A stretch of DNA of 64,000 bases from Nitrospirota bacterium (GTDB taxonomy: Bacteria; Nitrospirota; JACRHJ01). A program made the position numbers and the translations under genes. The stretch is taken from assembly GCA_963733375.1 (NCBI GenBank), contig CAVTDB010000020.1, forward strand, positions 2,467 to 66,466. The letters run 5' to 3'. Below, piece after piece: positions 1-64,000 of this stretch; the stretch's first letter is position 1, and each line of letters starts with the position of its first letter. The notes under the pieces are model-generated. The model saw only the letters and a program-made list of their open reading frames with translations, was not told where the DNA came from and did not search any database.

Positions 1-1
1 C

Positions 2-4856: not shown

Positions 4857-5060
4857 ATGAGCATGATGCGCAGGGACACGGAAAAAAAAATATACAAGAC
4901 CAGGGAAATCTGCGAGCTCTATGACATATCGCGGTCTACACTTTTCAGATGGGAAAACGAAGGGCTCATAACGGGCGTGCAGAGGGACTGGAGGGGCTGG
5001 CGGCTCTATCACGCGGCGAACTTGAAAGAGATAGAGCGGATAATCAAGCAGAAACAGTAA
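4857..5060 (+). CDS. small MerR-type helix-turn-helix DNA-binding protein
   Basis: 67 aa. YKTREICELYDISRSTLFRWENEGLITGVQRDWRGWRLY matches the MerR/excisionase-type HTH pattern. Lies immediately upstream of pilM. Confidence 0.65.
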   Translation: MSMMRRDTEKKIYKTREICELYDISRSTLFRWENEGLITGVQRDWRGWRLYHAANLKEIERIIKQKQ

Positions 5061-5078
5061 CTCCCGGTAACCAGCGAG

Positions 5079-6772: not shown

Positions 6773-6780
6773 GAGGAAAG

Positions 6781-7359
6781 ATGAGCATAATTGAGGATAA
6801 GATAAAGAAGCTTACCCCGAAACAGCAGACCCTCCTCCTGTTTTTCATGCCCGCGCTGATAATAGGCGCGTTCATGTATTATGTCTATCTGCCGGGGAGC
6901 AGAGCTATTTCGGACCTGGAGACGACCGTCCAGAAGAACGAAAGCGAAATATCAAAAAGCCAGATTATGCAGAGGAAGCTTAAACTGCTGAAGGTCGAAA
7001 ACGAGCGCCTCCAGCAGGAACTGAAGGTGGCCACGCAGCTGTTGCCGTCGCCGGCGGAAGGCGAGGGAGTCCCGGACGCCATATCGGGGGCGGCGAAGGC
7101 AAGCGGCCTTTCCGTGAAATCGGTGAACGCCGGGGACAAAAAAACGGGGCCGGGCGGGCTTTATGTCCAGACGCCCATAAGCGTTGAGGTTAACGGCGGC
7201 TACCATGACCTCGGAAAATTCATGGAGAAGCTCGACAAGATGCCGATGATGATGACGGTCTCGGAACTGAATATCTCTTCCGGGACCGTGGGCGGCATTA
7301 AAATGAACCTCCCGATCAAGTTCACCGTGCTGGCATATACGGCCGGCGGAGGTAAGTAA
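6781..7359 (+). CDS. pilO: type IV pilus assembly protein PilO
   Basis: 192 aa with an N-terminal TM helix, a coiled coil (QRKLKLLKVENERLQQELK) and a C-terminal ferredoxin-like part. Position after pilN. Confidence 0.85.
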   Translation: MSIIEDKIKKLTPKQQTLLLFFMPALIIGAFMYYVYLPGSRAISDLETTVQKNESEISKSQIMQRKLKLLKVENERLQQELKVATQLLPSPAEGEGVPDAISGAAKASGLSVKSVNAGDKKTGPGGLYVQTPISVEVNGGYHDLGKFMEKLDKMPMMMTVSELNISSGTVGGIKMNLPIKFTVLAYTAGGGK

Positions 7360-8183
7360 GTGGAAAAAAGGACTAAGGTATTAATCATAATGGTGGTGGT
7401 TCTGGGGATTGCGGCGGCGGGGTCCTTCTTTTACCGGCATTACAAGGCGCAGACAGCGCCCCAGCCGAAGTTTGCGCTGAGGATGGGCGCGCCTATAAAA
7501 AAGGGAGCAAAGGCGAAGTCCAAGCCTGCGGGGGAAGCGGGGCATGAGCACGGCCAATGCGCCGGAGCAGCAGAACCAGGTCGTGATAAAGACGGTTGAG
7601 GGGGGAAAGGAAGTGCGGTATAACACGCCGGAAGATTTCGCGGCGCACACGAAACTTTCCCAGTCCATGGCGGAATCTTATGTACAGTTGAAGCTCGACG
7701 AGGCCAAGAAATCTCTGGACGCGGCCAGGAAGATAAAAGACTCCATTGCCGCGGACCGGGCGGAGAAGGAAATCGCCCTCTATGAGAAGGCCGCCTCGAT
7801 TTTGAAGACGAGGGTGCTCGCCGGCCCTGAGAAAGACTACGTTTATTCGTCGCTCGGAAAAAGAGACCCGTTCATGTCCCCGTTTGAAGTGCCGAAGGTA
7901 TGTCCTCCTATATCGAGGAACGCCAGGCCGCTTGAGAAGGTGCCGGTCGATAAGCTTGTTGTAAGGGCAATATGCTGGAATAGATAAAGGGTTCAGGGCG
8001 ATGATATTCACTCCTGACGGACGGGGCTATACGGTCAAGTCGGGCGAGCCCATCGGGGACAAGCAGGGCAGGATTACCAGGATCACCGAAAACAGTGTCT
8101 ACGTTACCGAAAATATCAAGGACATCCTTGGCGACGTGGAGACCAACAAAGTAGTCTTACCCTTGCACAAGGAGGCGGAGTAA
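7360..8183 (+). CDS. pilP: PilP-like pilotin/alignment protein, split over three frames
   Basis: The pieces are 7360-7599 (TM anchor MEKRTKVLIIMVVVLGIAAAG), 7544-7987 and 8001-8183. The last piece (IFTPDGRGYTVKSGEPIGDKQGRITRITENSVYV) looks like the PilP beta-domain. A 1-nt shift near 7970-7975 would join ...KLVVRAI to AGIDKGFRAMIFTPDG. Confidence 0.55.
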
Positions 8184-10737
8184 TGGCGGGCGCCGGCCAA
8201 TTAAAAAAATCATTTCTGCTTTTATTCCTATGCGTTCTTTTTCTGTCAGCCTGCGCCGGGGGGCCGGGAGTATCAGGCAGCAAACGAAGGCCCCGTCGTC
8301 TTGAAGAAGGTGGACGTCGTCGACAACGATAAAAATACCGCCATAGTCATTACCACGGGCGCGCCGGTCATATTTACGACGCTGAGGCAGCAGGACCCCC
8401 CGAAGCTTATACTGGACCTGGCGGGAGTGGAGCCCGGCGAGGCAGGTGGCAGGCTCAACGTGGACAAAGGGCCGGTATCCTACATCAGTTCGTATAAGGC
8501 GGAGAATGCAAAGCAGATAACCAGGGTCGAAATCGCGCTGACCACGGATGCCGAAAGCATAATAACCCAGAACGAGTCTTCGATAAACGTTATCTTAAGC
8601 AAAACCGAAAAACATGTATTTCCAGGTACGGCAACCCCGGAGGCGAAGGCGCCCGAGGCGCCGCCCGCGCCAGAGGAAAAAGTCGCGAAGGCCGAGGCCG
8701 CCAGACCGGCGGCCCCTTCTGAAAAAGCCGCCATCAAACCTGTAGCGCCTCCCGCAAAGGCCGAGGCGTGCGGGGTGAGCGCTCCCGGCCATAAATCATC
8801 TTGTCCGACTCTCCCTGAGGCAAAGACGCTGACCAATATCTCCTTCTTCAAAGAGGGGGACAGCGCAGGCGTGCGCCTCCAGGGGGACGGGGTATTTAAA
8901 AAGCCGGAAATTTTCAAGCTTGGCGCGAACAGGCTCGTCGTGGACTTAATCGACATGAATTCCATAAAGGCCAAAGAGAGTTTCGACGTAAACGGGAAGG
9001 TGCTGGCAAAAGTCCGGATGGCCGCTCACAGGGATCTGCCCCGGAAGGTCCGGATAGTCCTGGACGTGAAGGGACCTTACGATTATGACGTTGAAAACTA
9101 GGGCAGGACTTTGGTGGTGAGCGTGCATCCGCCGGTAATGGCGAAAAAAGCTCCCGCCGCCGCCCACGCCGCGCCCGCCGCGCCTCCAGCGGCCCCGGCG
9201 CCGAAGGCAAAGGCGGAAGCCCCCAAGGCGGCGCCCGCTCGCCCGCGCCGGAGCGGGAGGCTAAAAAAGAAGCCCCTGCGCCAATGGCGCCGCGTAACGT
9301 CAAATCCAGACCGTCCGAGGCGAAATCACCCGCGCCCGTTAATATCTATGTCTCTCGCGCCGGGGGAAAGACTATTCTTTCTTCCAAGCCCCTTGCCTCC
9401 CGGACCCCGGCAGACAGCGCGGATTTAATGGACGCACAGGACAAGAAATATACCGGCGGCAAGATCTCCTTTGACGTCCAGGACGCCGACCTCGACAAGG
9501 TAATAAAGCTTCTGGCGGACGTCGCGGGCTTGAACCTGATAATGGACCCCACCGACGTCAAGGGGAAGGTCACTTTAAAGCTGGACAACGTCCCCTGGGA
9601 CCAGGCCCTTGACATACTTCTCCGGATTTACAACCTGGATAAGCGGATAGACGGGAACGTCTTAAGGGTGGCCTCGAAGGCAAGGCTGGATGACGAGACA
9701 AGGCGCGACCTGCTCCAGGTGGCGGAGCGGAAGAAACTGGAACAGGAGGCGGAAGACCTGTATACCATGACGTTCAAGATCAATTACATGAAGGCGACAG
9801 AGCTTGAGCCGAAGATAAAAAAGATCCTCTCCCCGAGAGGCGACATAATATCGAACGAGAGCACCAACGAGATTATCGTCACAGACATACGGCGCAATCT
9901 CGACAAGGCGGGGGACCTGATAAAGATACTGGACAAGGAAGTAAAGCAGGTGATGATAGAGGCGCGTATAGTGACGGTGGACGTGGGCTACAGCAGGTCG
10001 CTGGGCGTCTCCTGGGGCCTCACAAAGAATAGCGGGAATAACCCGAGCATCGGCGTGCTGGGAGGCTCCGCCGCAACCGGAACAACCACCGCAACCCAGG
10101 CGTGGTGGGAATAGGGGCTACCGGCGGGTCTACGCCGAATTATTCGATTAATATTCCGTCGGAACTGGCGGCGGCGGCTGGAGGCGTGGCAGGCAGCTTT
10201 GCCTGGGGCCATCTCCTGAAAGGGGTCAACCTTGACCTTACGATACAGGCATTAGAGGCGATCAACAAACTGGAGACGCTGGCCGCGCCGAAGGTCATGA
10301 CGCTTGAGAATAAAGCGGCCTCCATAGTCCAGGGCACCACCCTGTACGTCCAGACCACGTCGGCGGCGGGGACTGCTCCTACGCCTTTGAACGCAAATCT
10401 AAGCCTTACGGTCACGCCGCGCGTCACGGGCGACGACTTTATATCCATGGACATAGTCGCCACCGACAACACCCCGTCAACCATAACGCCGGCGGGGGCC
10501 ACCGCGTCGATAGAGACCAAGTCCGTCAACACCAGCGTGATCGTAAAGGACGGCGATACAATCGTCCTGGGCGGGGTCTTCACTAAAGCTACCGATAAGT
10601 CCGTGTCGGAGGTCCCTCTCCTTGGCAAGATACCGCTTCTCGGCTGGTTGTTCAAGAACCAAACCTTGAACCAGCCCCAATCGGAGCTTCTGATATTCAT
10701 TACGCCGAAACTGGTGAAGCCGGTCGTGGCCCTTTAG
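8183..10737 (+). CDS. pilQ: type IV pilus secretin PilQ, disrupted by 3 frame breaks and 1 in-frame TAG
   Basis: An unlisted 49-codon ORF at 8183 encodes a lipoprotein signal peptide (MAGAGQLKKSFLLLFLCVLFLSAC). AMIN domains lie in 8301-9101, followed by an Ala/Pro/Lys linker. N0/N1 domains lie in 9284-10114. The secretin C-domain lies in 10102-10737 (VPLLGKIPLLGWLFK...ELLIFITPKLV). Breaks are near 8258-8263 (G6 run), about 9200-9280 and about 10100. The nonsense codon is at 9099-9101. Confidence 0.85.
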
Positions 10738-10765
10738 CTCTTGCAAATTAAAATATGACGGTTTA

Positions 10766-10794
10766 AAATGCGCCCGTAGGGGCGCATTTTTTTT
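10766..10794 (+). terminator. intrinsic terminator after pilQ
   Basis: ATGCGCCC-gtag-GGGCGCAT hairpin (10768-10787) followed by a T8 run. Confidence 0.75.
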
Positions 10795-10830
10795 AGTAAC
10801 GCCCCCTCTGTTGTTGATCGGCGTGCGATT

Positions 10831-11820
10831 TTGACCACCATCGGCATCCTGTGTGACCCGCGACCTCAGAAGGTGGGTCAATTTTGGACGCTGTCCAGCA
10901 TAGAAAACATTACTATCATAAGCGATAGCAAAGCTTTTTCTTTGGAGCCTAAATCTACTCAACTCGATCCGTCGGACTTTAAATTCTTGCGTAAATTTTT
11001 AGACGTAACTAAAGCTAATCTGGTTTTTGCCAAAGCTATTGTTATCGTTGAAGGCGATGCTGAAAATATATTGTTACCTATTTTAGCAAAAATATTGAGG
11101 CGAAATTTTTCCGAATATGGCGTATCGATAGTAAATGTTGGTAGTCGAGGGCTTTTCCGATATAGTAAAAGATTTCAACGCAATGATGAGAAAGCCATCC
11201 CAGTCAAAATCGCTTGTGTTGCAGATAGAGATATTATTCCTGATACTGCAAAAGAATATGTAAGGGAAGGGAGCGTTTTTGAATCAGCAACGGATTGCGC
11301 GCAAATCATAACAAGACTAAAAGAGCATGATGCAGGTCCTGTTAAAACATTCATATCTCCAAAGTGGACGTTAGAATATGACCTCGCTTATAGCGGGCTT
11401 GGTAAAGAAGTACACGTAGCAGTTCAGCTTGCAAAAAAATGTAATAATAAGACATTCGATAGAGACGCCACAGAAAAAGAAGCGATTAGCACTTTTAATG
11501 GGTGGCTAGCTCAAGGATTACAAAATGAAGAGCTTGCCGCAAAATTTTTTAAGCCTCTTTATAAAGAAAATCTGTTTCAAAAGCTGAGTCTCAATGTACA
11601 TCCGGCGACGGGGCTTTTTCCCTTCCACGAATTCACACCACGGGGCAGTCTTGTTATTGACTTGATAGAATATAGAGCTATATTTTTCAAACACAAAAAG
11701 GGGATCGTGCCTGATGTTCAATATAAGAAGTCTATCCCTGAAAAAGAGCTCACAAGCCTAAAGAGATATATTGTCGAGCAAATTAAGAAACTTGTAGGGC
11801 CTGTCCGCTATTTTGTGTAA
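10831..11820 (+). pseudogene. OLD-family nuclease relic: Toprim half only, ATPase domain missing
   Basis: LVFAKAIVIVEGDAENILLPILAK and CVADRD are the Toprim E and DxD motifs of OLD/GajA-type nucleases. Homology starts abruptly at about 10895, where composition switches to AT-rich. The first ~20 codons are GC-rich non-homologous read-in. The stop codon lies inside the IS256 inverted repeat. Confidence 0.7.
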
Positions 11821-12689
11821 ATGGTTTTTCGGTTTTATAAAGCCAGCACTCTTTCTTCAAACATTATCGAAAACTGATTCAACGCTGATTTCCAATCCCT
11901 GATTGGCATCGTCCATTTCTTTGCGATGTTAATGAGAGCTAAGTATAGCAGTTTCAGCATGGCCTAGTCATTGGGAAAGTGGCCCCGGTTTTTGGTTACC
12001 TTGCGAAGCGACATATTGAGCGATTCTATCGCGTTGGTCGTGTAGATCACCTTCCGTATCTCAGGCGGATAGGAAAACAGCGGTATGATCCGCTCCCAGT
12101 TGTTCCGCCATGACTTGGCTATGCTCGGATGGGTGGCGTCCCACTTGGCGGCAAAGGCATCGAGGTTAGACTGAGCCTGCTCCATGGTCGGGGCCTGATA
12201 GATCGTCTTCAAGTCTTCGGCCACCTCTTTACGCTGTTTCCAGGACACGTAGTTCAGCCTGTGGCGTACCATGTGGACTATGCAAAGCTGTATCTGGGTA
12301 TTTGGAAAGACCGCCTCGATTGCTTCGGGAAAACCCTTGAGACCGTCCACGCAGGCGATGAAAATATCTTTCACGCCTCGGTTCTTCAGTTCCGTGACCA
12401 CCTGGAGCCAGAACTTGGCGCTCTCGGTCTCGGCCAACCACATTCCGAGGACTTCCTTTTTGCCTTCCATGGTAACGCCTATGCCCAGATAAACGGCCTT
12501 GCACGGTCATCTCGGACTGCATCGCACGCTCTAAAAGCTGCTTTGTGAGTTGCTTGAGAAGCCCGTTCTCACCAATAAGGTCTTCGGGCTTCTTGTAGTC
12601 CTTCATTAACGCATCGAGTAGCTCGTCGGTAGTGGCCATCGGTTCCTCCTTGAGGGTTAAATTTAAACCGATTCTGGCCATTTACACAA
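11815..12689 (-). mobile_element. IS256-family insertion sequence, internally deleted (875 bp)
   Basis: Terminal inverted repeats: GTGTAAATGG...CGGTTT at 11815, and its reverse complement at 12665-12689. Flanking 8-bp direct repeat GCTATTTT (11807-11814) / TCTATTTT (12690-12697), matching at 7 of 8 positions. Boundaries are ambiguous by 2 nt. Confidence 0.75.
11835..12639 (-). pseudogene. IS256-family (Mutator-type) transposase pseudogene
   Basis: The N-terminus [45 protein letters not shown] is fused out of frame, at about 12498-12505, to ...[61 protein letters not shown]. The central ~200 aa are missing. There is an in-frame TAG at 11964-11966 ([29 protein letters not shown]). Confidence 0.85.
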
Positions 12690-12697
12690 TCTATTTT

Positions 12698-13368
12698 ACA
12701 GGCTCAAAGAGCCCTTACCTTCGGATGGTCGTCGTAGGAAAGGACGAACTTTCCGTCGATGCACTTCAGTGTATCCCGAAGCTTGACGTGCATCTCCGGC
12801 TCCGGATATCTCCGTCAACATATAATAGGGCGGGTCGCAATAAAACACAGCGCCTTTTCTGTCCCATTTAGGGATTAACGCCTCAAAACTCTGTGACTCT
12901 ATATAAACACGCTGCAGGCGTTTCACGATACGTCTCCATGTCTTTAAGACAGCACGGGTATTTATTTTGCTTTGACCGGGCAGCACTCCATCCCGTCGTC
13001 ACACCGGCACCGAAACCGGTTGAGATCAAATAATAAAAGACGATAGCCTTTTCGATATCGTCTTTATATTGGCCTTTTTTATAACGTTCTTGGAAGGCAT
13101 GGTATTCTGAGCGGGATGATAAAAGGAAATACCGCCTCTTTAGGAACTGGTCCAGCTTATCTATGACGACACTGAAGAGGTTCACCAGGCCGTAGTGGAC
13201 GTCGTTATAATCATCAACCTCGCCTTTCTTTTGTTATTTTTTAAAGAGTACCTTTGCGCCGTCGCCGAATACCTCAATAAATCCAGTCCGGTTCTCCGGG
13301 AGCATCTCCACTATCGTTTTGGCCAGCTTCGCCTTCCCGCCGATCCAAGGCACAAATGCTTTTGACAC
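12698..13368 (-). pseudogene. D12-class N6-adenine DNA methyltransferase (Dam-like) relic
   Basis: GTG start at 13368 behind a GGAGG. SKAFVPWIGGKAKLAKTIVEMLP (SAM-binding region) and FYCDPPY (motif IV). In-frame TAA at 13234-13236, at least 2 frame breaks, and the 3' end is cut by the IS256 insertion. Confidence 0.75.
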
Positions 13369-13426
13369 GTTTTTGCCTCCCTGTCGTTAATCTCACGCTT
13401 CTTCTCAAAAAATATCTAACTATATG

Positions 13427-14986
13427 TTAATTAACACCAATTCCGTAATTCCTTATCTTTGTCAGGAGGGTCTTGTAGCTCACGCTCAGAAGCTCACGGG
13501 CCCGGCTTTTGTTACCCCCGGAGGATGCTAGTGCCCCCTTTATCGCCTCTATTTCGGCGGCCCTTGCCGCAATCGAGGCCGTCCGCTGGAGCCCGCCCGG
13601 CGCTTCTCCTTCTACCGGTATCCGGTCCAGATGCTCCAATCCTATCTCGCCGCCGTCGACGAGTATTACAGCTCTCTCGATGCAGTTTGCCAGCTCCCGC
13701 ACGTTCCCTTTCCACTCCATTCCCAAAAGCGCATCCGACACATCGCCTGAAATATGAAGAGGCCCTTTTTTAAGCTCGGACCGGTATATCTCCAGGAAGT
13801 GCCGTGCTAGAAGAGGTATGTCTTCCCGCCTGTCGCGAAGAGGCGGGATATGCACTGGGAACACGTTCAGCCGGTAATAGAGGTCTTCCCGGAACATCCC
13901 GTCCCGCACGGCCTTTATTAAATCCCTGTTGCTGGCCGCCGCGACCCTTACGTCAACTGAAAAGGGTTCGGAACCGCCCAAGCGCTCGATCATCTCGCCC
14001 TGGAGCGCCCGGAGGAGCTTTGCCTGAAGAGACGGGGCCATCTCTCCTACCTCGTCCAAGAAAAGCGTACCCTTGTCGGCATGCTCGAACTTGCCTATCC
14101 TCCTCGTTTCGGCACTGGTAAAAGCGCCCTTTTCGTGCCCGAAGAGCTCGGACTCCATAAGATCCTTCGGGATTGCGGAGCAGTTAACCGCCACGAACGG
14201 ACCGCCTTTTCTGGGGGAGAGGTGGTGCAGTGTCTTGGCGAACAGCTCTTTTCCGGTGCCCGACTCCCCTGTTATCAAGACCGTCGCCTTAGTCGGAGCG
14301 GCTTTCCTCAGGAGTTCAAGCGAGTCCATGAGCGCCTTGCTTTTCCCGACAAGCATCGGGAGCGAGAGTTCATGGGCTAACTCCTCTTTTAGCACCACGT
14401 TTTCCGAGGCCAGCTTCCCGCTCTCCAGGGCCTTCTCCGCAAGCGCCAGCATATGCGAGATGCCGAACGGCTTGGTCAGAAAGTCATAAGTCCCAGCCTC
14501 TACCGCCCCGACCGCCGTCTCGATGCTGCCGAACGCGGTCATCTGCTTGAGCTTACGGTTTTCGTTCTCAAGGTTGTCTTGCCTGAGAAGCTCGTCCATA
14601 CTCAAAGTGACTACCCCCACAGGCTTGCTGGATTTTGGCTGGGAAACTACTGTTTTACGGGTAACTTGTCTTTTCACGGTTTTTATCCGAGGTCCAAGAT
14701 TAGGGTCGTGGAGAGAACCTTTGAGCTGATTAGGCGCTTTTGGTCCGGTGTTCTTAATGAGCCTGTATAAATTTTCTCTTCCTTGTTTTGGGGAACGGCT
14801 TCTGGAGCCGACGACTCTTATATATCCCGCTCTTAATAACGTACCAATATACTTTCTTGAATTAGCCACACTGGCCTCCGAGAGCCTGGCCACATCCCCG
14901 ACAGTAAACGGCCCCTTGAAAACCCTCATTACGCACCACGCCCGTGCATGAGCAGAGACCTTGCTCTTATCCGTTAGCCGCTTCAT
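13427..14986 (-). CDS. chimeric sigma54-dependent activator: element-derived wHTH-like N-terminus fused to a receiver-less AAA+/Fis-HTH enhancer-binding protein
   Basis: Intact 519-aa ORF. Residues from about 150 onward read [11 protein letters not shown]...GESGTGKE...GAFTSA...RELANCIERAV...[22 protein letters not shown] (NtrC family). Residues 1 to about 148 have no receiver-domain similarity, and the start is ATGA-coupled to the MuB-like gene. Homology with the paralog at 18402-19757 stops at nt 14542. Confidence 0.8.
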   Translation of the reverse strand: MKRLTDKSKVSAHARAWCVMRVFKGPFTVGDVARLSEASVANSRKYIGTLLRAGYIRVVGSRSRSPKQGRENLYRLIKNTGPKAPNQLKGSLHDPNLGPRIKTVKRQVTRKTVVSQPKSSKPVGVVTLSMDELLRQDNLENENRKLKQMTAFGSIETAVGAVEAGTYDFLTKPFGISHMLALAEKALESGKLASENVVLKEELAHELSLPMLVGKSKALMDSLELLRKAAPTKATVLITGESGTGKELFAKTLHHLSPRKGGPFVAVNCSAIPKDLMESELFGHEKGAFTSAETRRIGKFEHADKGTLFLDEVGEMAPSLQAKLLRALQGEMIERLGGSEPFSVDVRVAAASNRDLIKAVRDGMFREDLYYRLNVFPVHIPPLRDRREDIPLLARHFLEIYRSELKKGPLHISGDVSDALLGMEWKGNVRELANCIERAVILVDGGEIGLEHLDRIPVEGEAPGGLQRTASIAARAAEIEAIKGALASSGGNKSRARELLSVSYKTLLTKIRNYGIGVN

Positions 14987-15687
14987 TTCTTTGCCCGCCA
15001 GTCAAGGTCTCTGATGTGGGAGGCATCTATTTGCTTGAGGTTGTTGCGCTTGGCGAGAACCTCAATATGGTTGATGATTATCTTCAGGGAGCGAAAACAG
15101 CCTGAAGATGCTTTTGCCATGGCATCAGAGGCCTCATATGTCATGCTTACCTCACACAGTTCTTTGGCTGCCTTCATTATGTCCTCGTTATCCAGGGGCT
15201 GGAACTTGTTTATCTGGCTTATGCGTGAGAAGAAATGCGGGTGGCGCATCAGCTTCTTATCTACGGACCCCATACCTATTAGAAGGATCGGGGTGCCACA
15301 TTCGTCGTGAAGGTCTCGTAAGGATTCCAGGACCCTTGAGTCGTGGCAGCAGAAGTCGGCCTCGTCAATTATCAGCATGACATTACTTCCCATAAGCAGT
15401 TCCACCGCCTGTCCAAACAAACTTGAAAACCTGTAATATGGGTCGGCTCCAAGGGCATTGACGATCATATCGAAGAACCACCTGTGTGATATTGCAGCTC
15501 TTGCCCGGACATATACGGCATTTGAGCCTTTGCGTCCAACAAACCATGTGCAGGTCTCGGTTTTCCCGAGGCCGGGGTCGGAGTAAATTAGCCCAAAGCC
15601 GGGGACTCCGTTGCCGCGTTCTTTCAGATTGTCGATCATTTCGACGGACCTCATGACGTTCTTGGTCTTAACAAACACGTTGTGCAT
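14983..15687 (-). CDS. MuB/TniB-like AAA+ transposition ATPase
   Basis: Walker A (SDPGLGKTE) and Walker B (MLIIDEAD). The likely start is MHNVFVK at 15687, behind AAGGAGG; the track start at 15735 reads through an intergenic hairpin. Lies downstream of the DDE transposase. Confidence 0.8.
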   Translation of the reverse strand: MHNVFVKTKNVMRSVEMIDNLKERGNGVPGFGLIYSDPGLGKTETCTWFVGRKGSNAVYVRARAAISHRWFFDMIVNALGADPYYRFSSLFGQAVELLMGSNVMLIIDEADFCCHDSRVLESLRDLHDECGTPILLIGMGSVDKKLMRHPHFFSRISQINKFQPLDNEDIMKAAKELCEVSMTYEASDAMAKASSGCFRSLKIIINHIEVLAKRNNLKQIDASHIRDLDWRAKK

Positions 15688-15734
15688 GGTGCACCTCCTT
15701 GTTAAATGGAAAAGGCCCCGAGCGGGGCCTTTCA

Positions 15735-17741
15735 TCAGACATACGAGGCGAGCTTTGCCTCGTATTCGGTTAGCCAGCTTCTTTCATCAGGGCTTAAGTC
15801 CTGCCTGCTTCTGAGGGCAAGGTACTTGTCATAGTCGGATTTATACAGCCCATTGCTTTTTGTTTTTTTACTTCTTACAATCCCGTCGGCAACCGACAAA
15901 TGACTTACGGCAAGCTTTGCCTCCAGTGCCTCGACGTGCTCCGCTATCCTGGGAACTGTTGGCACAATCTCATGCCAGGGCAGGACCGCATCCTTGGAGG
16001 CGTCCTTGGCCATTTTAACGACCTTTAAAGTCTGGCGTTTAAGGGACCGTTTCCTTCGGATGCCTTCCTTCACCGCGTCCATAGTCACCGGGTTGCCGGT
16101 AAGCTTTGCCATCGGGTGTACAGGCTCGACCAGCTTAGCCGAGCAGAGGTACTCGCCTCTTATGTGTGTAAACGAACACCTGAGATAAATCGAAGAAGCT
16201 GTACCGTATGCGGACTTTGTCTCGTAAACCGTAAAGGGCCTCGTGGAAGTATTCGTTGCCGAGGAACCTGATGCCGTTCCTGCCGATGGAGGCCGTCTCA
16301 ACGGACAACATCAGGTAATCCAGCTCGCGGGCATTTATTCCATTACCACGTCCTGCATTAAGGACTTCGCCCGGTGTACGCCCATTGAGGCCGCCGTGTG
16401 GCTGTGTCCGGTAATATTCCCGCCACTTGCCTATCATGGCCATTGCCTCCGGTATTGTGGGCACCCAGTCATTATGCAGGCTCTTGAGGAATTTTTCGTT
16501 CCGTTTCATGTAGCCGGGTTTATCCTCTATTGAAGCGCCGGTAAACGAGGGCATGAGCCTTTCAAACGAGTCGGAGAAAGTCCCGAAGAAGCGCTCAATG
16601 GGTTTACTCTGCGCGTTATACGGCCAGGCAAAGGACGTAATAATGCCGAGCCTCGCAAACATCCCGTAAAAGCCGCACTCCTCAAAGCTCGGACTCGCTT
16701 GTGAAATACCTTCGCCTTGAACGCCTTGCCGTTATCGAGCAGGGCTGCCTTCGGGAACTTACCAAGCTCCAGGACCGCATTACGGAGGGCACCGGCAACG
16801 GCCTGTATGTTTTCCTCGACCATAATCTCGTAGCCTAACAAGTCACGGCTTGCCCAGTCGTAGAAACCAACGAGTACGGCACGGCAAGGTTTTCCGGTAT
16901 ATGGGTTTATCACCTGAAAATTGAGCCTGTGGCCGTCGGCGACCAGGACGTCGCCGACATCAAGCAGGGACGAATCACGCTTCAGGAACGGGAGCACCTT
17001 GTCGTTTAGGGCCTTCTCGCCCTCACGGAGCGCAATCCACAGGTCATAATGACGCTTCTTGAAGTTATCGACAAACCGGCGAAGGGTCATGCCTGATGAA
17101 GGGGAGGGGAGGCCACGGCGCTCTAAGATATACTTTGTCAGCTTTATAGCCGTCTCGACCTTGACCTGGTTCTGGTGCAGGAGCTGCGTAAGGAGCAGGT
17201 TGGCCTCGTCTTCGGTGACCTTCGACCTCTCACCTTGCTTATTGGTGGGTCCCGGGGCCAGGACACGGTAATCGCTGTCCCCGTCCTTATATGCCTTCTC
17301 CCACCGGTAAAGTGTCCCGCGCGAGATGGTGCCCAGAATCTTGAATATCTCCGGAAGCAGATGGCCGGTATTGTATGAGAGCAGGAAACAGCCCAAGGCG
17401 TCTCCGATACTACCTGATGCGATAGCTATCTCCTTGTCCTTGTGCCAGGCAGCAAGCAGGTCGGCACGAGCAAGTGCCGATTTCTCGGTCCGGGCGGGCA
17501 GGTGCCTTTTATCGGCTGCGCATATATTGGAGGGATGGGGCTGGTCTGTTTTACATTTAAGGTAGTTGTCTTGAACTTCGGGAGGGAGGGCGGAGAGAGG
17601 GATCAGGTACTTCCAGCCCGATGTGCCACGAGGGACTTTCTCGGCTGGAAGTTTTTCCAGGCTGATGAGCCTCTGGACCGACCTGACCGTTATGCCCAGG
17701 AGGTCGGCTGCCTCGGTAATCTCAACTCTTGAAGCTTCCAT
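15735..17741 (-). CDS. Mu-like DDE transposase (about 669 aa) with two frame breaks
   Basis: N-terminal HTH (ITEAADLLGITVRSVQRL). DDE triad candidates are LVADGHRLNF, LLDNGKAFK and SKPIERFFGT. The three track ORFs 16527-17741, 16135-16662 and 15735-16301 join with shifts near 16690 and 16170. Confidence 0.8.
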
Positions 17742-58147: not shown

Positions 58148-60298
58148 TTAATGCGGCAGGTCCTTTTTATTTCCCTTCATCGAGAGCGATATCCGGTTCC
58201 TCTTCACGTCCACTTCAAGCACCGTCACCGTTACCCTCTGCCCTACTTTTACCACGTCCGCCGGGTTCTTGACGAACCTGTCGGCAAGCTGGCTTATATG
58301 CACGAGGCCGTCCTGGTGCACGCCTATATCGACAAAAGCGCCGAACGCGGTAATGTTCGTCACCACGCCGGGAAGCCTCATGCCGGTCTCTACATCGGTT
58401 ATCTTCTCGATCCCTTCCGCAAAACTGACGGACTCAAACTGCCGGCGCGGGTCGCGCCCCGGCTTTGCAAGCTCGTCAATTATATCTTTCAGTGTCGGGA
58501 TGCCTGTCTTGTCGCTGACGTACTTCTTGATGTCGATTTTCTTCCGAAGCTCCGCGTCCCTCATAAGGTCGGCGACCGTGGAATCCAGGTCCCTGGCCAT
58601 CGCCTCCACCACCGGGTAGCTCTCCGGGTGCACGGCGCTGCCGTCGAGAGGGTTCCCCGCATCCCTTATCCGGAGGAACCCGGCCGCCTGCTCGAAGGCC
58701 TTCGGGCCCAGGCGCGGAACGCTTTTAAGTTGTTCGCGTAACTGGAACGGGCCGTTTTCGTTCCTGTAATCCACAATGTTCTGCGCAAGCTGCGGGCCAA
58801 GTCCGGACACGTAGGTGAGAAGCTCCGGGCTTGCCGTATTCGCCTCTACGCCGACCGCGTTCACGCAGCTCATTACGACATCGTCAAGGCTCTTCTTAAG
58901 GGCGTTCTGGTCCACGTCGTGCTGGTACTGGCCTACGCCGATAGATTTCGGGTCTATCTTGACCAGTTCCGCGAGCGGGTCCATAAGCCGCCTTCCTATG
59001 GATACGGCGCCCCGCACGGTGATGTCGTGGTCCGGGAATTCCCGGCGCGCGGTCTCCGAGGCCGAGTATATGGACGCGCCGCTCTCGTTGACCATGACTA
59101 TCTTTATAGAGCCTGGCAGTCCGAGCCCGCGCAGGAAGGTCTCCGTCTCGCGCCCCGCGGTCCCGTTGCCGACAGCTATCACCTCTATATTGAATTTTTC
59201 GCAAAGCGCGCGTACCTTCGCCGCGGATTCGTCCTTGGCCCTCTCGGACATTGTCGGGTAGATAACGTCGTGATGCAGAAGCTGACCCTGCCTGTCGAGA
59301 CATACTACCTTGCAGCCCGTGCGGAAGCCCGGGTCTATCGCCAGGACGTTCTTCTGCCCGAGAGGCGGGGACAGAAGGAGCTGGCGCAGGTTTTCGGCAA
59401 AGACCGCTATCGCCTCCGCCTCCGCCTTTTTCTTTGCCTGAAGACGCGTTTCCGTCTCCATGGAGAGGGACAACAGCCGCTTATAACTGTCCTGCACGGC
59501 AAGCCGCACCTGTTCCGAATCCGCGCCGCTCCCTTTCACGAAAAGCCCTTCCAGGATGGACACCGCCTCCTCTTCCGGCGGGGCTATCTGCAGGGCAAGG
59601 AAGCTTTCGTTCTCGCCGCGTCTCATCGCGAGTACCCGGTGCGAAGGGGCGGAAGATACCGGCTCTTCCCAATCGAAGTAATCCCGGTATTTTGCGCCCT
59701 CGTCCTCCTTGCCCTTAAGCACCTTTGAGCGAAGCAGTCCCTTCGAGTTAAAAAGTGCGCGCATCCTCTCGCGTGCCGCATGGTCCTCGCTTACCATCTC
59801 CGCGATAATATCCCTCGCCCCGGCAAGCGCCTCGTCGGCACTACTGACGCCCTTATCGGGGTCTATAAAAGAAGCGGCCAGGGCCAGCGGCTCCACTCCA
59901 TCCTGCGCAAGGATACGCTCCGCCAGGGGGAGAAGACCCTTCTCCTTTGCCATCGTGGCCCGGGTACGCCGCTTCGGCCTGTAAGGCAGGTATATGTCCT
60001 CCAGCGCGCGGTAGCCCTCCGCGGCATTGACTGCGGCCTTCAGCTCGTCGGTCAGGACTCCCTGTTCCTCCAGGGATTTAAATATCGCGGCGCGCCGTTT
60101 GTCGAGTTCGGCAAGCTGGGCCAGCCTGTCCCTGATTCCGGCAATGGCGACCTCGTCAAGCGAGCCTGTAGCCTCTTTCCTGTATCTTGCTATGAACGGG
60201 ACGGTAGCCCCTTCTTCAATCAGCGCGGCGGCGGCCTGGACCTGACGAAAGCCAAGACTTAGCTCGGCCGCAATATGTTCGACATATTTATTTTCCAA
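58148..60298 (-). CDS. tex: Tex-like transcription accessory protein (S1 RNA-binding domain)
   Basis: Intact 716 aa. N-terminal HTH region (ELSLGFRQVQAAAALIEEGATVPFIARYRKE), a YqgF-like domain, HhH motifs and a C-terminal S1 domain (GVVTNITAFGAFVDIG). Confidence 0.95.
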   Translation of the reverse strand: MENKYVEHIAAELSLGFRQVQAAAALIEEGATVPFIARYRKEATGSLDEVAIAGIRDRLAQLAELDKRRAAIFKSLEEQGVLTDELKAAVNAAEGYRALEDIYLPYRPKRRTRATMAKEKGLLPLAERILAQDGVEPLALAASFIDPDKGVSSADEALAGARDIIAEMVSEDHAARERMRALFNSKGLLRSKVLKGKEDEGAKYRDYFDWEEPVSSAPSHRVLAMRRGENESFLALQIAPPEEEAVSILEGLFVKGSGADSEQVRLAVQDSYKRLLSLSMETETRLQAKKKAEAEAIAVFAENLRQLLLSPPLGQKNVLAIDPGFRTGCKVVCLDRQGQLLHHDVIYPTMSERAKDESAAKVRALCEKFNIEVIAVGNGTAGRETETFLRGLGLPGSIKIVMVNESGASIYSASETARREFPDHDITVRGAVSIGRRLMDPLAELVKIDPKSIGVGQYQHDVDQNALKKSLDDVVMSCVNAVGVEANTASPELLTYVSGLGPQLAQNIVDYRNENGPFQLREQLKSVPRLGPKAFEQAAGFLRIRDAGNPLDGSAVHPESYPVVEAMARDLDSTVADLMRDAELRKKIDIKKYVSDKTGIPTLKDIIDELAKPGRDPRRQFESVSFAEGIEKITDVETGMRLPGVVTNITAFGAFVDIGVHQDGLVHISQLADRFVKNPADVVKVGQRVTVTVLEVDVKRNRISLSMKGNKKDLPH

Positions 60299-60428
60299 AA
60301 TATCTCCTTGGGTAAGACTATAGGAAAAAGAAGGAGATTATACAGTAAATTTAATAGAATTCATGAGAAAAGAGTAAGGCGTGTTCACAAAGGTTGTCGA
60401 GTCAAGCAAAGATGGCCTTCGCTTGATT

Positions 60429-61781
60429 TTACGCGCATGCGCCCTTCTTGACCGCACACGAAAAGTAATCGTTAATTTCTTTGAAAATTTCTCTAAGCCT
60501 GATAAGAGGCACTTCGCAGTAGCTCCGGTCGGCATCGGTAAAGTGGATGCCGCCGAGCTTCGTATTCGGGGTAAGCTTTCCCTCCTTAAGCAGCATGTCA
60601 TAGAGGTCGCTCCCCGGCAGCGGGACGAAAATACTGAATGAATACCTGTCCAGGTCAAGCTCCTTCGCAAGCCTGAACGTGTCGGATATGTCCTTCTCGG
60701 TCTCGCCCGGTACGCCTATCATAAAGAAGCCGGATACCTTGACGTAACGCTTCGCGGTCTCTACCGCATTCCTTATCTGTTCTACCGTTATTCTTTTATT
60801 CAGCGCGTCGAGCGTTTTCTGGGAGCCGGACTCGATTCCCAGGTCCACCTGCACCAGCCCGGCGTCCTTCATAAGACCCAGCATCTCCCCGTCAACCAGG
60901 TCCACGCGGGTATTCATCTGCCATTTCATATCGAGGCCGCGCGCAAGAAGTCCTTTGCAGAACTTCTTCACCCAGTCGCGCTTCAGGTCGAATATGCTGT
61001 CTTTGAACCAGATGCCGTCTATTTTAAATTTCTCCTTCAGGGCCTGCATCTCGTCGATAGCGGCCGCCGGTTCCTTTATCCGGTATTTCCTGCCCATCGC
61101 GCCTTCGACCGCGCAGAAGGCGCAGTGGTACGGGCAGCCCCTGGATACGAGCATCGAAAGGCCGCTGATGCCCCTGAGCCTGCGGTTGTATTCGATGTAC
61201 CGCTCTGCCGGGAAGGACCCGTAATCCGCCATCGGGAGCTCGTCAAGCGGGTCAATACCCTTCGCCTTTGCCTTGATGACGGGCCTTTCGTCCTTCAGAT
61301 AACAGAGCCCGTCGATATCTGCCGGCGGCTTGCCCTGGACAAGCTCCAGCATCGGCCTTTCGCCCTCCCCCCGGATTACGTAATCTACCGGCGCTTCCTC
61401 AAAGACCGGCTCCGGCATGATGGTCGGATGCACGCCGCCCATCACGATCTTCGCCTGCGGCAGGACCTCCCTTACGAACTTGGCGAGCCTGAGCGCGGAC
61501 GGGTATGTGGGCGTCATGGCGGTAATGCCGACAAGGTCCGGCCTGTCTTTTTTCAGCCTGGCCCGAAGCTCTCCATCCGTCATGTCGAGCGCCTGAAGGT
61601 CTATAAGCCCGGCCTGCTCCCCGTGCTTCTTCAGGTACGCGACGAGGTTCGCAAGCCCCAGTGGCGGCTCGAACGGGTGGACGTACATATTCCCCGTCTC
61701 AATCCAATCCCTGTATCTGACGTACCGCCCCTTCATCTCGTCCGGGGACAGATACTGGGGGTTTAAGAGCAGGACCTTCAT
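60429..61781 (-). CDS. B12-binding-domain radical SAM protein (class B)
   Basis: 450 aa. N-terminal cobalamin-binding Rossmann part (DLVGITAMTPTYPSALRLAKF...IVMGGVHPT). Canonical CxxxCxxC (SRGCPYHCAFC). ATGA-coupled to the upstream methyltransferase gene. Confidence 0.9.
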   Translation of the reverse strand: MKVLLLNPQYLSPDEMKGRYVRYRDWIETGNMYVHPFEPPLGLANLVAYLKKHGEQAGLIDLQALDMTDGELRARLKKDRPDLVGITAMTPTYPSALRLAKFVREVLPQAKIVMGGVHPTIMPEPVFEEAPVDYVIRGEGERPMLELVQGKPPADIDGLCYLKDERPVIKAKAKGIDPLDELPMADYGSFPAERYIEYNRRLRGISGLSMLVSRGCPYHCAFCAVEGAMGRKYRIKEPAAAIDEMQALKEKFKIDGIWFKDSIFDLKRDWVKKFCKGLLARGLDMKWQMNTRVDLVDGEMLGLMKDAGLVQVDLGIESGSQKTLDALNKRITVEQIRNAVETAKRYVKVSGFFMIGVPGETEKDISDTFRLAKELDLDRYSFSIFVPLPGSDLYDMLLKEGKLTPNTKLGGIHFTDADRSYCEVPLIRLREIFKEINDYFSCAVKKGACA

Positions 61782-62446
61782 AGCTTTCTCCCGAGGAATA
61801 CATGAAACATATTCCTTAAATTTTCGTAGCCCACGGTGTATTCCGTGTGCTCAAGCTCCGTCTCGTAGAACTGGAGGGTTTCCATGCCTTCGCTTAAAAG
61901 CTGCCTTGCTTCTTCGGCGCTGAAGAAATGATAGATGAGCCCTTCAAGAGAGCCGCCGCCCATTACGAAGGTATTGGGCTCTATCTCGGTGCCGGTCTGC
62001 CTGCCGATTTCGTAGAGAGTGTTGGCCGTCGAGCGGAGGCTGCAATAAAAAAAACCACCCGGTTTCAGTATCCGTTTTATCTCCGAGATGGTCTGCAAAA
62101 TGGCGCCCCGGCGCGCTAAATGAACGACACGCCAGGAAATTATGACATCAAAAGCGTTTGTTTTGAACGGCAGGCAAGCCATGTCCGCCCTCAGCAGACA
62201 CCCTTTCCTTGGCGACGCCAGCTGTGCGCTTTTGACCGCCTTCTTCGAGATATCTATCCCGACTATCCGGAAGCCGTGCGTCCCGAGATGCCGGAAATGC
62301 CTGCCCAGGCCGCAGCCTAAGTCGAGCACGCGGTCTACCCCCGCCGCCTTGAAGAACGGCACAAGTTCCGTGACGTGGCTGTCGGGAGTTTCGAGCTTGT
62401 ACCCGCAGCCCAGCACGTCGTCCCATGTCTTGCCGTTAGCGGACAT
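61778..62446 (-). CDS. class I SAM-dependent methyltransferase
   Basis: Start MSANGKTWDD at 62446. Motif I VLDLGCGLGRH. 222 aa. Overlaps the upstream gene by 11 nt. Confidence 0.85.
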   Translation of the reverse strand: MSANGKTWDDVLGCGYKLETPDSHVTELVPFFKAAGVDRVLDLGCGLGRHFRHLGTHGFRIVGIDISKKAVKSAQLASPRKGCLLRADMACLPFKTNAFDVIISWRVVHLARRGAILQTISEIKRILKPGGFFYCSLRSTANTLYEIGRQTGTEIEPNTFVMGGGSLEGLIYHFFSAEEARQLLSEGMETLQFYETELEHTEYTVGYENLRNMFHVFLGRKL

Positions 62447-63557
62447 CCGCAAGCACTTCCTCCCCGGCCGAACAGCAGTTGCACTTGGCGCAGCCGGAGA
62501 CCGACTTCGCCGGGTCGAGCCCGTATTCAATTAATATTTCCCGCAGCTCTTCAAAAACCGCATAAAGCCAGTCCGCCTCGGGCGGCTTCCTGTTCTGAAG
62601 CTCCGATCCCATAAGCGGCCTGAATACGGTAATGAACGGTAACGCGCCGGCTTTCGCTACGGCCCGCGCCCCGGCCATCAGCGACTCCTTCGGCTCCAGC
62701 CCCGCTATAAGCCACGAGGACACCTGGTTCTTGCCGAAAATAGAAGCCGCATACGACAGGGCGTCAAGGTAGCGGCTGACGGGTATCTTCGCCTTGCCGG
62801 GACACATTTCGGACCGTATCTTTTCGTCAAAGATTTCGATATTAAAACTGATAGTATTCAGCCCGGCCTCTTTCAGCTTCTTTATGTAGGAAAAATCCTC
62901 GGGAGGGCAGAGCTGGGCATAGATCGAAATGTCGCTGACTTTCCTTACCTCGCGTATCGCCTCCTCATACATCTCCGCGCCGCAGTCTTCTCCGTACACC
63001 GTGCCTGCGTTTATATTCAGCTCCGTGTATTTCTCGCCCTTCTCTTCCAGGGCCTTCACTACCGCCGCGATGTTCGCAAACGACTTCGTCCGCTCGTTAG
63101 GGTCCGGAGTGAGGGCGCAGAAACGGCAGCCCTCCTCGTCGAGCTTGAAACGGCATATCCCGGTGAGCGCGGTCGCCAGGATGTTCTTGCCGTGGAGCTG
63201 CACCATCGAGTTATATGGGGTCCCGTCCGGCAGCTTCTCGGAGTACCACCAGGGGTCCTCGATAAGCCTCGCCGCGATTACCGGCTGGCCGTCTTTTTGG
63301 ATGACCTTCTTTTCGTGGTCGTAATAGTACGGGGAGTCTTTTACGAAATCCTCGTACACCGCCAGATTTATCGAATAGTCCTTCCCGTCCCTTGTCAGCT
63401 CAAAACACCTGCCCTCGGAGAGGGACGCACGCTTGTGGACGTACCGCGGCAGACCCGCTTTCACGAGGTCGGGATCGAGCCTTATGCCGTTCGACATCAG
63501 GCTCAGTTTCAGCCATGTGATACTGTTTTGCTTCTGCGGTGTAAGCAGCATTTTCAT
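62436..63557 (-). CDS. radical-SAM-like enzyme with a non-canonical CX8CX2C cluster motif and a C-terminal CxxCxCC
   Basis: Start MKMLLTPQ at 63557 (ATGA overlap with the upstream stop). C135-x8-C144-x2-C147 (GICRFKLDEEGCRFCAL, nt 63117-63155). TIM-barrel-like strand pattern (TELNINAGT, IYAQLCPP, NTISFNIEIFD). C-terminal SGCAKCNCCS. Confidence 0.65.
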   Translation of the reverse strand: MKMLLTPQKQNSITWLKLSLMSNGIRLDPDLVKAGLPRYVHKRASLSEGRCFELTRDGKDYSINLAVYEDFVKDSPYYYDHEKKVIQKDGQPVIAARLIEDPWWYSEKLPDGTPYNSMVQLHGKNILATALTGICRFKLDEEGCRFCALTPDPNERTKSFANIAAVVKALEEKGEKYTELNINAGTVYGEDCGAEMYEEAIREVRKVSDISIYAQLCPPEDFSYIKKLKEAGLNTISFNIEIFDEKIRSEMCPGKAKIPVSRYLDALSYAASIFGKNQVSSWLIAGLEPKESLMAGARAVAKAGALPFITVFRPLMGSELQNRKPPEADWLYAVFEELREILIEYGLDPAKSVSGCAKCNCCSAGEEVLADVR

Positions 63558-63865
63558 CTCTCGAATGTGAAGGTCATGTCCTTGGCGACGTTGAACCCCG
63601 CCTCTACCTCCAGCGTCTTCAGTATGGCCGAAGGGATGGGGCAGGCCGAGTGTTTCACACGCCTTGCGGCCGCCTGGTAAACCGGGTTCTGCAGGATGGG
63701 GATAAACACGTCCATCTCTTTGAGGACGGGAATGTCTTCCGCGAGCGCTTTCACATGCTTGCACCCGGTCTCGACCGTCAAGGAATATTTCCCGGCGGCG
63801 GCTTTTTCCACCCTTATATTTATAGTATATCCGCAGCCGCCGGTATTTACAACCAGTTTAGTCAT
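63554..63865 (-). CDS. small 3-Cys/2-His protein of unknown function
   Basis: 103 aa: MTKLVVNTGGCGYTINIRVEK...TGCKHVKAL...VKHSACPIPSAILK. First complete gene of the coupled operon. Confidence 0.6.
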   Translation of the reverse strand: MTKLVVNTGGCGYTINIRVEKAAAGKYSLTVETGCKHVKALAEDIPVLKEMDVFIPILQNPVYQAAARRVKHSACPIPSAILKTLEVEAGFNVAKDMTFTFER

Positions 63866-63889
63866 GTTTGTCCTGATTTGACCATGATA

Positions 63890-64000
63890 TCAACCCTTTA
63901 TGGCTACTTCGTAGTTCGTCTTCTCAAGGAGCGCCTTCAGGTTCGGGAACGGGTCCTTCATATGCGGGATGTGCATAGCCATCATGAACTCCTTCTGGAA
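63890..64000 (-). CDS. 3' end of an unidentified gene (continues beyond the window)
   Basis: Own translation: ...FQKEFMMAMHIPHMKDPFPNLKALLEKTNYEVAIKG, with a stop at 63890-63892. Same strand as the radical-SAM operon and 24 nt upstream of it. Confidence 0.4.
   Translation of the reverse strand, partial: FQKEFMMAMHIPHMKDPFPNLKALLEKTNYEVAIKG

Follow-up and report, generated by a model that had tools for sequence, protein, structure and literature searches.

Three-component corrinoid methyltransferase systems with a RACo-type activator, as represented by MtaABC, MtsAB, Mto, the bacterial O-demethylases and mec, are the closest described relatives of the operon reported here. Specifically, the mec cassette of anaerobic dichloromethane catabolism draws on the same protein families, in ten syntenic genes (mecA-J) that include a PocR histidine kinase, MecG, and an antiporter (bioRxiv 10.1101/2021.08.30.458270). 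A second set of described systems concerns sulfonates, whose oxygenase-free use as a sulfur source by strict anaerobes has been only partly explained, by glycyl-radical lyases (the sulfite-lyase IslAB) and a nitrogenase-like isethionate reductase, IsrBHDK (PMC11423573). Here, we describe four consecutive minus-strand genes at the end of a 64,000-nucleotide stretch of a Nitrospirota bacterium (contig CAVTDB010000020.1, assembly GCA_963733375.1), a stretch that we refer to as the window. They encode a 103-amino-acid (aa) DUF6951 protein, a variant radical S-adenosylmethionine (SAM) enzyme, a class I methyltransferase, and a B12-binding radical SAM enzyme (hereafter, the B12 enzyme). We demonstrate the gene content, synteny, co-conservation, and family assignments of this locus, and near-identical relatives place the four at the 3' end of a ~11-kb, 12-gene operon. 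Comparison across genomes indicates that all four are conserved, but as two units: DUF6951 is the last gene of a corrinoid methyltransferase cassette, and the other three form a separable, conserved module that is predicted to act on small molecules.

The full operon is visible in three relatives of the window. One of them, a Nitrospirota metagenome-assembled genome (MAG) with a 752-kb contig (L004), is 97% identical to the window in DNA and collinear with it through tex and beyond, while two others (L001 and L003) match it at ~93% identity across the part in common. By these identities, the window belongs to the same Nitrospirota species as its relatives or to a sister species. The same 12 genes occur in each of the three, with eight preceding the four on the same strand and at close spacing (Table 1). 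An exact-sequence look-up of three window proteins returned no record, and the genomic context was therefore taken from homologues throughout. The fifth gene, which is cut by the window edge, ends in the translation ...FQKEFMMAMHIPHMKDPFPNLKALLEKTNYEVAIKG*, which is the C-terminus of the 657-aa L001 RACo with one K/R change; by this match, it is RACo, the ATP-dependent reductive activator of corrinoid proteins. The best NCBIfam match of the L001 RACo is AcsV-like, at 485 bits, which is under the cutoff of 800. We defined a corrinoid methyltransferase system as a substrate methyltransferase, a DxHxxG corrinoid protein, a methyl-tetrahydrofolate or methyl-tetrahydromethanopterin methyltransferase, and a reductive activator encoded together. 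All of these components are present in the three relatives, whereas the window shows only the last 36 codons of RACo. Further, the two MtaA-type methyltransferases of the cassette carry a Zn-site (H-x-C...C) pattern. A perfect sigma-54 consensus, TGGCAC-N5-TTGCT, lies directly upstream of the first gene in all three relatives and is itself preceded by a PAS/GAF histidine kinase and an NtrC-type activator; the operon is probably sigma-54-dependent. Relative to mec, the operon has a different gene order, and the AhpD-like protein, a ferredoxin resembling reductive dehalogenases and QueG, and DUF6951 are additional. Judged from the published description of mec, these differences in composition and order make identity with it improbable.

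The initial annotation of this DNA had described four minus-strand genes and a fifth running off the window, all chained by overlaps and followed by a 130-bp spacer before tex. Direct reading of the sequence bears out the four genes, the overlaps among them, and the spacer, but the chain does not extend to the fifth gene, where a gap of 24 nt separates the RACo stop codon from the DUF6951 start without any overlap. The same annotation had placed the operon start outside the window, which agrees with the eight further genes found upstream in the relatives. In a scan of positions 60000-64000, predicted promoters and terminators were not in excess over shuffled sequence, and the spacer held no terminator-like or promoter-like site. 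The base composition of the operon region is similar to that of its neighbors. Synteny breaks right after the B12 enzyme, as L001 has a tRNA gene and other genes there, while L004 and the window have tex. An Rfam scan of eight loci returned no riboswitch and one tRNA only. In L004, the DUF6951 and variant radical SAM genes are each split into two reading frames; since both are intact in the window, L001, and L003, these splits are probably assembly frameshifts and not pseudogenes.

The initial annotation had favored a peptide or protein maturation pathway, in which the 103-aa protein would be methylated or crosslinked by the two radical SAM enzymes and the methyltransferase, as for a ribosomally synthesized and post-translationally modified peptide (RiPP). 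Such a pathway would account for the translational coupling between a small Cys-containing open reading frame (ORF) and a radical SAM gene, RiPP clusters are known to include B12-radical SAM enzymes and class I methyltransferases, and weak NCBIfam matches point the same way (ApyD, 154 bits against a cutoff of 750; the RiPP C-methyltransferase TIGR03975, 124 against 282; daptide methyltransferase, 42 against 175). All of these RiPP-specific models, however, remain far under their cutoffs, and the small protein does not behave as a precursor. It matches PF22263 at 88.6 bits (cutoff 27), with the alignment spanning residues 2-101 of a model of 101 positions. When 1.84 billion representatives were searched with a profile of the family, 533 clusters at 50% identity were found, nearly all of them stand-alone and ~105 aa long. 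The family is conserved over its full length; among 40 diverse members, G9, C11, C35, and C75 never vary, and conservation reaches at least 90% at H72, P76, and P78, in keeping with its earlier description as a small 3-Cys protein with Cys and His residues. Its AlphaFold2 model (predicted local distance difference test [pLDDT], 80) is folded, with a three-stranded sheet followed by helices.

The genomic setting of DUF6951 points in the same direction. Across 82 DUF6951 loci (80 from a metagenome scan and two more), RACo was detected upstream in 63 and directly precedes DUF6951 wherever the upstream sequence suffices, and all nine cassette genes occur in the same order in 13. Radical SAM genes follow DUF6951 in a single locus, L048, which is a 77%-identical Nitrospirota relative. 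Because DUF6951 follows RACo, and because the radical SAM genes are missing in 81 of the 82 loci, we assign it on comparative grounds to the corrinoid methyltransferase cassette, as its last gene, and not to the radical SAM enzymes as a RiPP precursor or peptide substrate. Conversely, the module occurs without DUF6951 in Geomonas, Thermincola, anammox bacteria, Omnitrophota, and others, and the operon encodes no leader/core architecture, RiPP recognition element domain, protease or peptidase, or exporter. We consider RiPP or protein maturation to be highly improbable. Instead, we call DUF6951 a predicted small metalloprotein (three Cys and one His) associated with RACo. It shares with IscU, SufE, and CsdE a predicted three-stranded sheet with helices, along with three Cys and a His, but is ~25 residues shorter, and the profile has no sequence match in the PDB. 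An IscU/SufE-like role is suggested tentatively by the model, and DUF6951 may serve as an Fe-S, sulfur-relay, or electron-transfer partner at the RACo end of the cassette.

The remaining three genes travel together without the cassette. The variant radical SAM enzyme, the methyltransferase, and the B12 enzyme are all adjacent in 13 of 21 independent bacterial loci in which the variant enzyme is at least 40% identical to that of the window, including Geomonas subterranea, Candidatus Desulfatibia, several Thermodesulfobacteriota, Omnitrophota, Planctomycetales, and an Actinomycetota MAG. Two further loci, Thermincola and L011, have the radical SAM pair without an adjacent methyltransferase (in Thermincola, it lies a few genes upstream), two, both anammox, have the variant enzyme and the methyltransferase with a divergent B12 enzyme, and four have the variant enzyme alone. 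The methyltransferase adjoins the variant enzyme in 15 of the 21, and orthologues of the B12 enzyme, at 46-53% identity, adjoin a variant radical SAM enzyme in 21 loci. Given that the same gene order recurs in many independent loci, the gene set is not a product of chance. The initial annotation had made its reading depend on conservation of the small ORF, which the 533 clusters establish, and on co-conservation of the gene set, which holds within each of the two units and not across them. Among these module loci, only the Actinomycetota MAG (L023) has DUF6951, and it represents an independent repeat of the arrangement in the window, in which the cassette and DUF6951 are followed by an additional variant radical SAM enzyme of 431 aa and then by the module. 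Past the module, L023 has genes that read, from sequence alone, as PAPS-reductase-like, ATP-sulfurylase-like, TauE-like, and CysK-like. In the same MAG, the second of the MtaA-like genes seems to be truncated, and RACo follows it without the corrinoid protein and ferredoxin genes in between, which may reflect a deletion or an assembly artifact. In two Planctomycetales/Omnitrophota loci (L020 and L024), a larger conserved set lies upstream of the module. Several additional radical SAM enzymes belong to it, of which one carries a zinc ribbon of the HMPTM type, along with a further two B12-radical SAM enzymes, a membrane protein resembling UbiA, an ATP-binding cassette (ABC) ATPase, a GTPase of the CobW/HypB/UreG type, and a protein that carries an FeS-domain motif. 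GAF sigma-54 activators beside some module loci gave no NorR-specific link to nitric oxide, as the NifA, FhlA, and NorR models scored about equally and all fell under their cutoffs.

Table 1. Positions of the genes, junctions, and other features in the window and in related loci
Sequence	Feature	Position	Strand	Details
Window	DUF6951 gene	63554-63865	minus	103 aa; ORF listing and direct sequence reading
Window	Variant radical SAM gene	62436-63557	minus	373 aa; ORF listing and direct sequence reading
Window	Class I methyltransferase gene	61778-62446	minus	222 aa from ATG; alternative start TTG at 62452 gives 224 aa, the same as the L001 gene call
Window	B12-binding radical SAM gene	60429-61781	minus	450 aa; ORF listing and direct sequence reading
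Window	RACo gene, 3' end	63890-64000	minus	36 codons and stop; remainder beyond the window
Window	RACo stop codon	63890-63892		TGA
Window	DUF6951/variant radical SAM junction	63557-63554		ATGA overlap, read from sequence
Window	Variant radical SAM/methyltransferase junction	62446-62436		11-nt overlap, read from sequence
Window	Methyltransferase/B12 enzyme junction	61781-61778		ATGA overlap, read from sequence
Window	Spacer	60299-60428	none	130 bp between the operon end and tex
Window	tex	58148-60298		Directly past the 130-bp spacer
L001	Sigma-54 motif	2261-2276		Same place in L003 and L004; also in L106 and L107
L001, L003, L004	Receiver-like protein			118 aa; first gene of the operon
L001, L003, L004	MtaA-like methyltransferase			Uroporphyrinogen decarboxylase (URO-D) family
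L001, L003, L004	AhpD/CMD-like protein			
L001, L003, L004	MtrH-family methyltransferase			342 bits; cutoff 287
L001, L003, L004	Second MtaA/CmuA-family methyltransferase			255.9 bits; cutoff 235.4
L001, L003, L004	Corrinoid protein			198 bits; cutoff 215; base-off/His-on; DVHDIG (DxHxxG) motif visible
L001, L003, L004	Two-cluster ferredoxin			220 aa; like the C-terminal part of reductive dehalogenases and QueG
L001, L003, L004	RACo			657 aa; Pfam Fer2, RACo_linker, Raco_middle, RACo_C_ter
L001	tRNA gene	13187-13270	minus	Directly past the operon
L004	Split DUF6951 and variant radical SAM genes	9634-11120		Two reading frames each
L023	Second MtaA-like gene and gap before RACo	4918-5843		
L020, L024	Larger conserved set upstream of the module	~1-10000		
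L090	Example of the ~13-gene cassette	1-16303		Syntenic cassette of L046-L127

What occupies the place of the module in other DUF6951 loci bears on its possible function. After DUF6951 in most cassettes, and sometimes past FolD, there is a gene for a DsrM-like membrane protein (51 loci), and a gene for a DsrK/HdrD/TfrB-like CCG protein lies downstream in 38 loci. Cysteate synthase is next in most (TIGR03844, 465 bits against a cutoff of 325), followed by sulfopyruvate decarboxylase as a fusion (181 bits against 148 with the alpha model and 219 against 221.5 with the beta model), and a gene for an SsuA-like binding protein frequently lies close by. The synthase and the decarboxylase represent the coenzyme-M-type biosynthesis genes of Methanosarcinales, coupled here to an Hdr-like disulfide reductase. 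In the window lineage and in L023, the radical SAM module occupies the exact place of this DsrMK-like/cysteate synthase/sulfopyruvate decarboxylase block. Neither enzyme of the cysteate synthase route to coenzyme M is present in the window or its operon. As a separate observation, a syntenic cassette of ~13 genes (L046-L127; for example, L090, L107, and L085) is common in peat, wetland, and sediment metagenomes, in hosts that are apparently non-methanogens. Its order runs from the receiver-like protein through MtaA-like, AhpD-like, MtrH, MtaA, corrinoid protein, ferredoxin, and RACo genes to DUF6951, and onward through the DsrM-like, DsrK/HdrD-like, cysteate synthase, and fused sulfopyruvate decarboxylase genes.

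The proteins of the locus all belong to known superfamilies, and the upstream cassette is, by its gene families, a recognizable corrinoid methyltransferase system. The four protein classes proposed initially agree with the Pfam and NCBIfam results, and so does the remark that no characterized pathway could be assigned, as none matches the locus. Specifically, the variant radical SAM enzyme belongs to PF04055 (40.2 bits against a cutoff of 29.5) and to NF045502, variant_rSAM (225.7 against 125). Its cluster motif, C135-x8-C144-x2-C147, is invariant in 21 homologues, with the canonical CX3CX2C absent, and the 16 closer homologues all retain a C-terminal C356-x2-C359-x2-C362 motif. The TIGR04043 and NF045502 families share the CX8CX2C motif and overall sequence with the window enzyme but differ from it in their setting: the window enzyme is partnered by a methyltransferase and a B12-radical SAM enzyme, whereas the TIGR04043 family is partnered by nitrilase, GNAT, and AIRS-like genes. 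Membership in the MSMEG_0568 family (TIGR04043) was rejected at 215.5 bits, short of the cutoff of 303.7, and Nit1C-type partners are absent from the operon. The closest folds to its AlphaFold2 model (pLDDT, 90) are HydE, PylB, ThiH, BioB, lipoyl synthase (LIAS/LipA), and HydG. All of these enzymes have a full barrel and small-molecule substrates, and sulfur insertion is catalyzed by several. In Clostridia, Bacilli, and Christensenellaceae MAGs (L034, L035, L037, L039, and L043-L045), long ORFs (660-1100 aa from stop to stop) carry the variant radical SAM domain at their C-terminal end, and their N-terminal 400-700 residues match none of the queries used.

The methyltransferase is of class I (PF08241, 74.6 bits against a cutoff of 21.2; PF13649, 69.1; VLDLGCGLGR motif) and of a generic kind, with no specific family applying (best NCBIfam match, DVU_1556, 67 against 155). 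The B12 enzyme is a class B radical SAM protein (PF02310, 81.1 against 32.1; PF04055, 89 against 29.5) with a canonical CX3CX2C motif, C-PYH-C-AF-C in sequence. Every specific NCBIfam model tried for it fell under its cutoff, including BchE (211 against 481), HpnJ (180 against 578), BzaD (143 against 450), QCMT/MgmA (129 against 360), PhpK (131 against 600), and the RiPP C-methyltransferase model given above. Its nearest solved relatives by sequence are AprD4 and the glutamine C-methyltransferase of methyl-coenzyme M reductase (9CCB), and among its >1,100 homologues at E <1e-40, the best 120 listed are mostly ~50-55% identical. The partial match to HpnJ, along with one to a ladderane-associated lipid radical SAM family (157 bits), would fit a role in tailoring hopanoid-, ladderane-, or ether-type lipids, as would the presence of the module in anammox bacteria and in Planctomycetota/Omnitrophota loci that also have UbiA-like and extra radical SAM genes. 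Nevertheless, all of these scores are under their cutoffs, the module is found in many lineages without such lipids, and the operon of the window has no lipid-synthesis genes. The initial annotation had offered cofactor or lipid tailoring as an alternative to peptide maturation; its cofactor or small-molecule part stays compatible with our results, but lipid tailoring is most unlikely.

A lead to function comes from orthologues of the B12 enzyme outside the module. Six loci were sampled: Clostridium pasteurianum CP003261 (L128), Rhodomicrobium udaipurense (L129), Acetobacterium (L130), and three more (L131-L133) that include Polyangiaceae, Geobacteraceae, and a Joint Genome Institute contig (L132). 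Their B12 enzymes are 50-52% identical to that of the window, compared with 46-53% for those of the module loci, and the two groups intermingle in distance clustering; given this equal identity and intermingling, they are one orthologous family. In all six, the B12 enzyme adjoins a radical SAM enzyme of ~420 aa (383 aa in L132), which in C. pasteurianum carries a CX8CX2C motif and passes NF045502 (195 bits against 125). SAM synthetase (MetK) is encoded in all six, as is a binding protein of the NMT1/SsuA type, accompanied by ABC-transporter genes. Of these binding proteins, the two that were scanned score above the SsuA cutoffs (TIGR01728, 221 and 254 against 163.5; PRK11553, 319 against 299). 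Five of the six encode a 155-aa, weakly PNPOx-like protein. Single loci add a family 2A encapsulin with cysteine desulfurase cargo, a rhodanese, a CysK-like enzyme, a methylthioadenosine/S-adenosylhomocysteine nucleosidase (Pfs), LuxS, and a phosphoribosyltransferase, and a nitrogenase-like cluster of the Mar/Isr type lies beside one. By its gene content, this B12 enzyme/~420-aa radical SAM/MetK/importer locus is a candidate anaerobic sulfur-scavenging system. It shares with the Isr and Isl systems the SsuABC/TauABC-type importers, cysteine desulfurase, and rhodanese, yet the likeness is one of gene setting only: the radical SAM pair consists of entirely different enzymes, with no nitrogenase-like or glycyl-radical component.

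Importers recur around other relatives of the module. Archaeal homologues of the variant radical SAM enzyme (~396 aa, 32% identical) lie inside SsuABC-like ABC transporter operons of ANME-1/Candidatus Ethanoperedens (L025, L027, L028, L031, and L033) and Bathyarchaeia (L026 and L029). Their order is binding protein, permease, radical SAM enzyme, binding protein, and ATPase, without a B12 enzyme or methyltransferase, and one of the binding proteins passes SsuA_fam (166 against 163.5). In Geomonas, an AsrC-like sulfite reductase adjoins the module.

These settings also bear on whether the module could build or modify a heteroaromatic part of a cofactor, for example, a dedicated lower ligand for the corrinoid protein of the operon. 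The Bza pathway offers the obvious precedent, as the enzyme classes of the module (an atypical radical SAM enzyme, a class I methyltransferase, and a B12-radical SAM enzyme) match BzaF-BzaC-BzaD and both are linked to cobamide biology, here through an operon shared with a corrinoid protein and its activator. The distant relationship of the variant enzyme to the cofactor enzymes CofH, MqnE, HmdB, and ThiH, the AIR-synthase-like (aminoimidazole ribonucleotide synthase-like) genes beside its paralogues in six loci, and the CbiET genes near some cassettes would agree with such a role. Against this, all three proteins fall short of the Bza family models, the variant enzyme is not ThiC-like, most module loci lack cobamide genes, and the B12 orthologues sit with sulfonate importers and sulfur-starvation genes instead of cob genes. 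Overall, we regard cobamide or cofactor tailoring as unlikely.

Since the orthologues of the radical SAM pair sit with NMT1/SsuA-type importers, SAM synthetase, and often sulfur-starvation genes, we infer, tentatively and well short of confidence, a small-molecule organosulfur module that serves the methyltransferase cassette. The cassette would pass a methyl group, by way of Co(I) and CH3-Co(III), between tetrahydrofolate and a thiol or thioether, in a direction and with a substrate that we can only propose, while RACo would repair oxidized Co(II). In most copies of the cassette, the co-substrate may be a sulfonate-type thiol. The module could then make or process a small organosulfur metabolite, either a sulfonate or a thiol, by O2-independent radical chemistry and methylation, and this metabolite could serve the cassette as co-substrate or as sulfur source. 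A more specific proposal, which we advance as possible but doubtful, is that the pair represents a previously unrecognized O2-independent system that acquires or transforms the sulfur of aliphatic sulfonates or related organosulfur compounds, recruited in this Nitrospirota lineage together with the additional methyltransferase to supply or recycle the sulfonate or thiol co-substrate of the MtaA/MtrH-type corrinoid cassette. As such, it would be the anaerobic counterpart of SsuDE and TauD.

Several observations weigh against an organosulfur role. The strongest association with sulfonate importers belongs to the 420-aa paralogue subtype and not to the subtype of the window, many module loci show no sulfur genes, and no cysteate synthase, ComDE, DsrMK-like, or SsuA-like genes were found in the window. 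SsuA-like binding proteins do flank three module loci, at scores below cutoff (74-80 bits), and NMT1-family binding proteins are not all specific for sulfonates, such that other ligands are possible. Sulfur scavenging offers no evident reason for a class I methyltransferase. For DUF6951, the best PDB matches of the model (IscU, SufE, CsdE, and SufU) are weak (E 0.03-0.3, template modeling score ~0.5), and an hhalign comparison with E. coli IscU found no relationship. A literature search combining B12-radical SAM enzymes with sulfonates, or for the radical SAM pair, returned only unrelated systems. The AIR-synthase-like genes already mentioned count on the same side, as do metal genes at two module loci: a copper/heavy-metal set of HMA protein, multicopper oxidase, and cation-efflux genes in Thermincola, and a Cus-type resistance-nodulation-division (RND) efflux pump that adjoins the Geomonas locus. 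The latter two would suit methylation or detoxification of a metal or metalloid (As, Se, Te, Hg, or a related element) by the cassette and module, as would the weak similarity of the methyltransferase to TehB, ArsM, and MduS and the resemblance of the AhpD-like cassette protein to arsenosugar-associated and ArsM-fused AhpD domains. All of these matches, however, lie well short of the family cutoffs, metal genes do not recur among 138 module neighbors, and no ars, mer, or hgc genes are present, which makes a metal or metalloid role very unlikely in our view. The probability that remains falls to some other explanation.

In the literature searched, we found no description of the three-enzyme module, of DUF6951, or of a cassette that joins cysteate synthase with MtaA and MtrH. 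The same applies to a reaction for the CX8CX2C enzyme or for TIGR04043/MSMEG_0568 or variant_rSAM members (the Nit1C papers give none) and to a coupling of corrinoid systems to coenzyme-M-type genes or to a radical SAM module. The comparisons herein provide functional context for DUF6951 and for the variant_rSAM/TIGR04043-like enzymes, both of which previously had none. Further, the cassette with cysteate synthase and sulfopyruvate decarboxylase suggests methyl transfer dependent on a coenzyme-M-like thiol in non-methanogens. Finally, the widespread pair of a variant radical SAM enzyme and a B12-radical SAM enzyme is a concrete candidate for anaerobic desulfonation, and because it occurs in the cultivable Clostridium pasteurianum, Rhodomicrobium udaipurense, and Geomonas subterranea, this candidate role is genetically testable.

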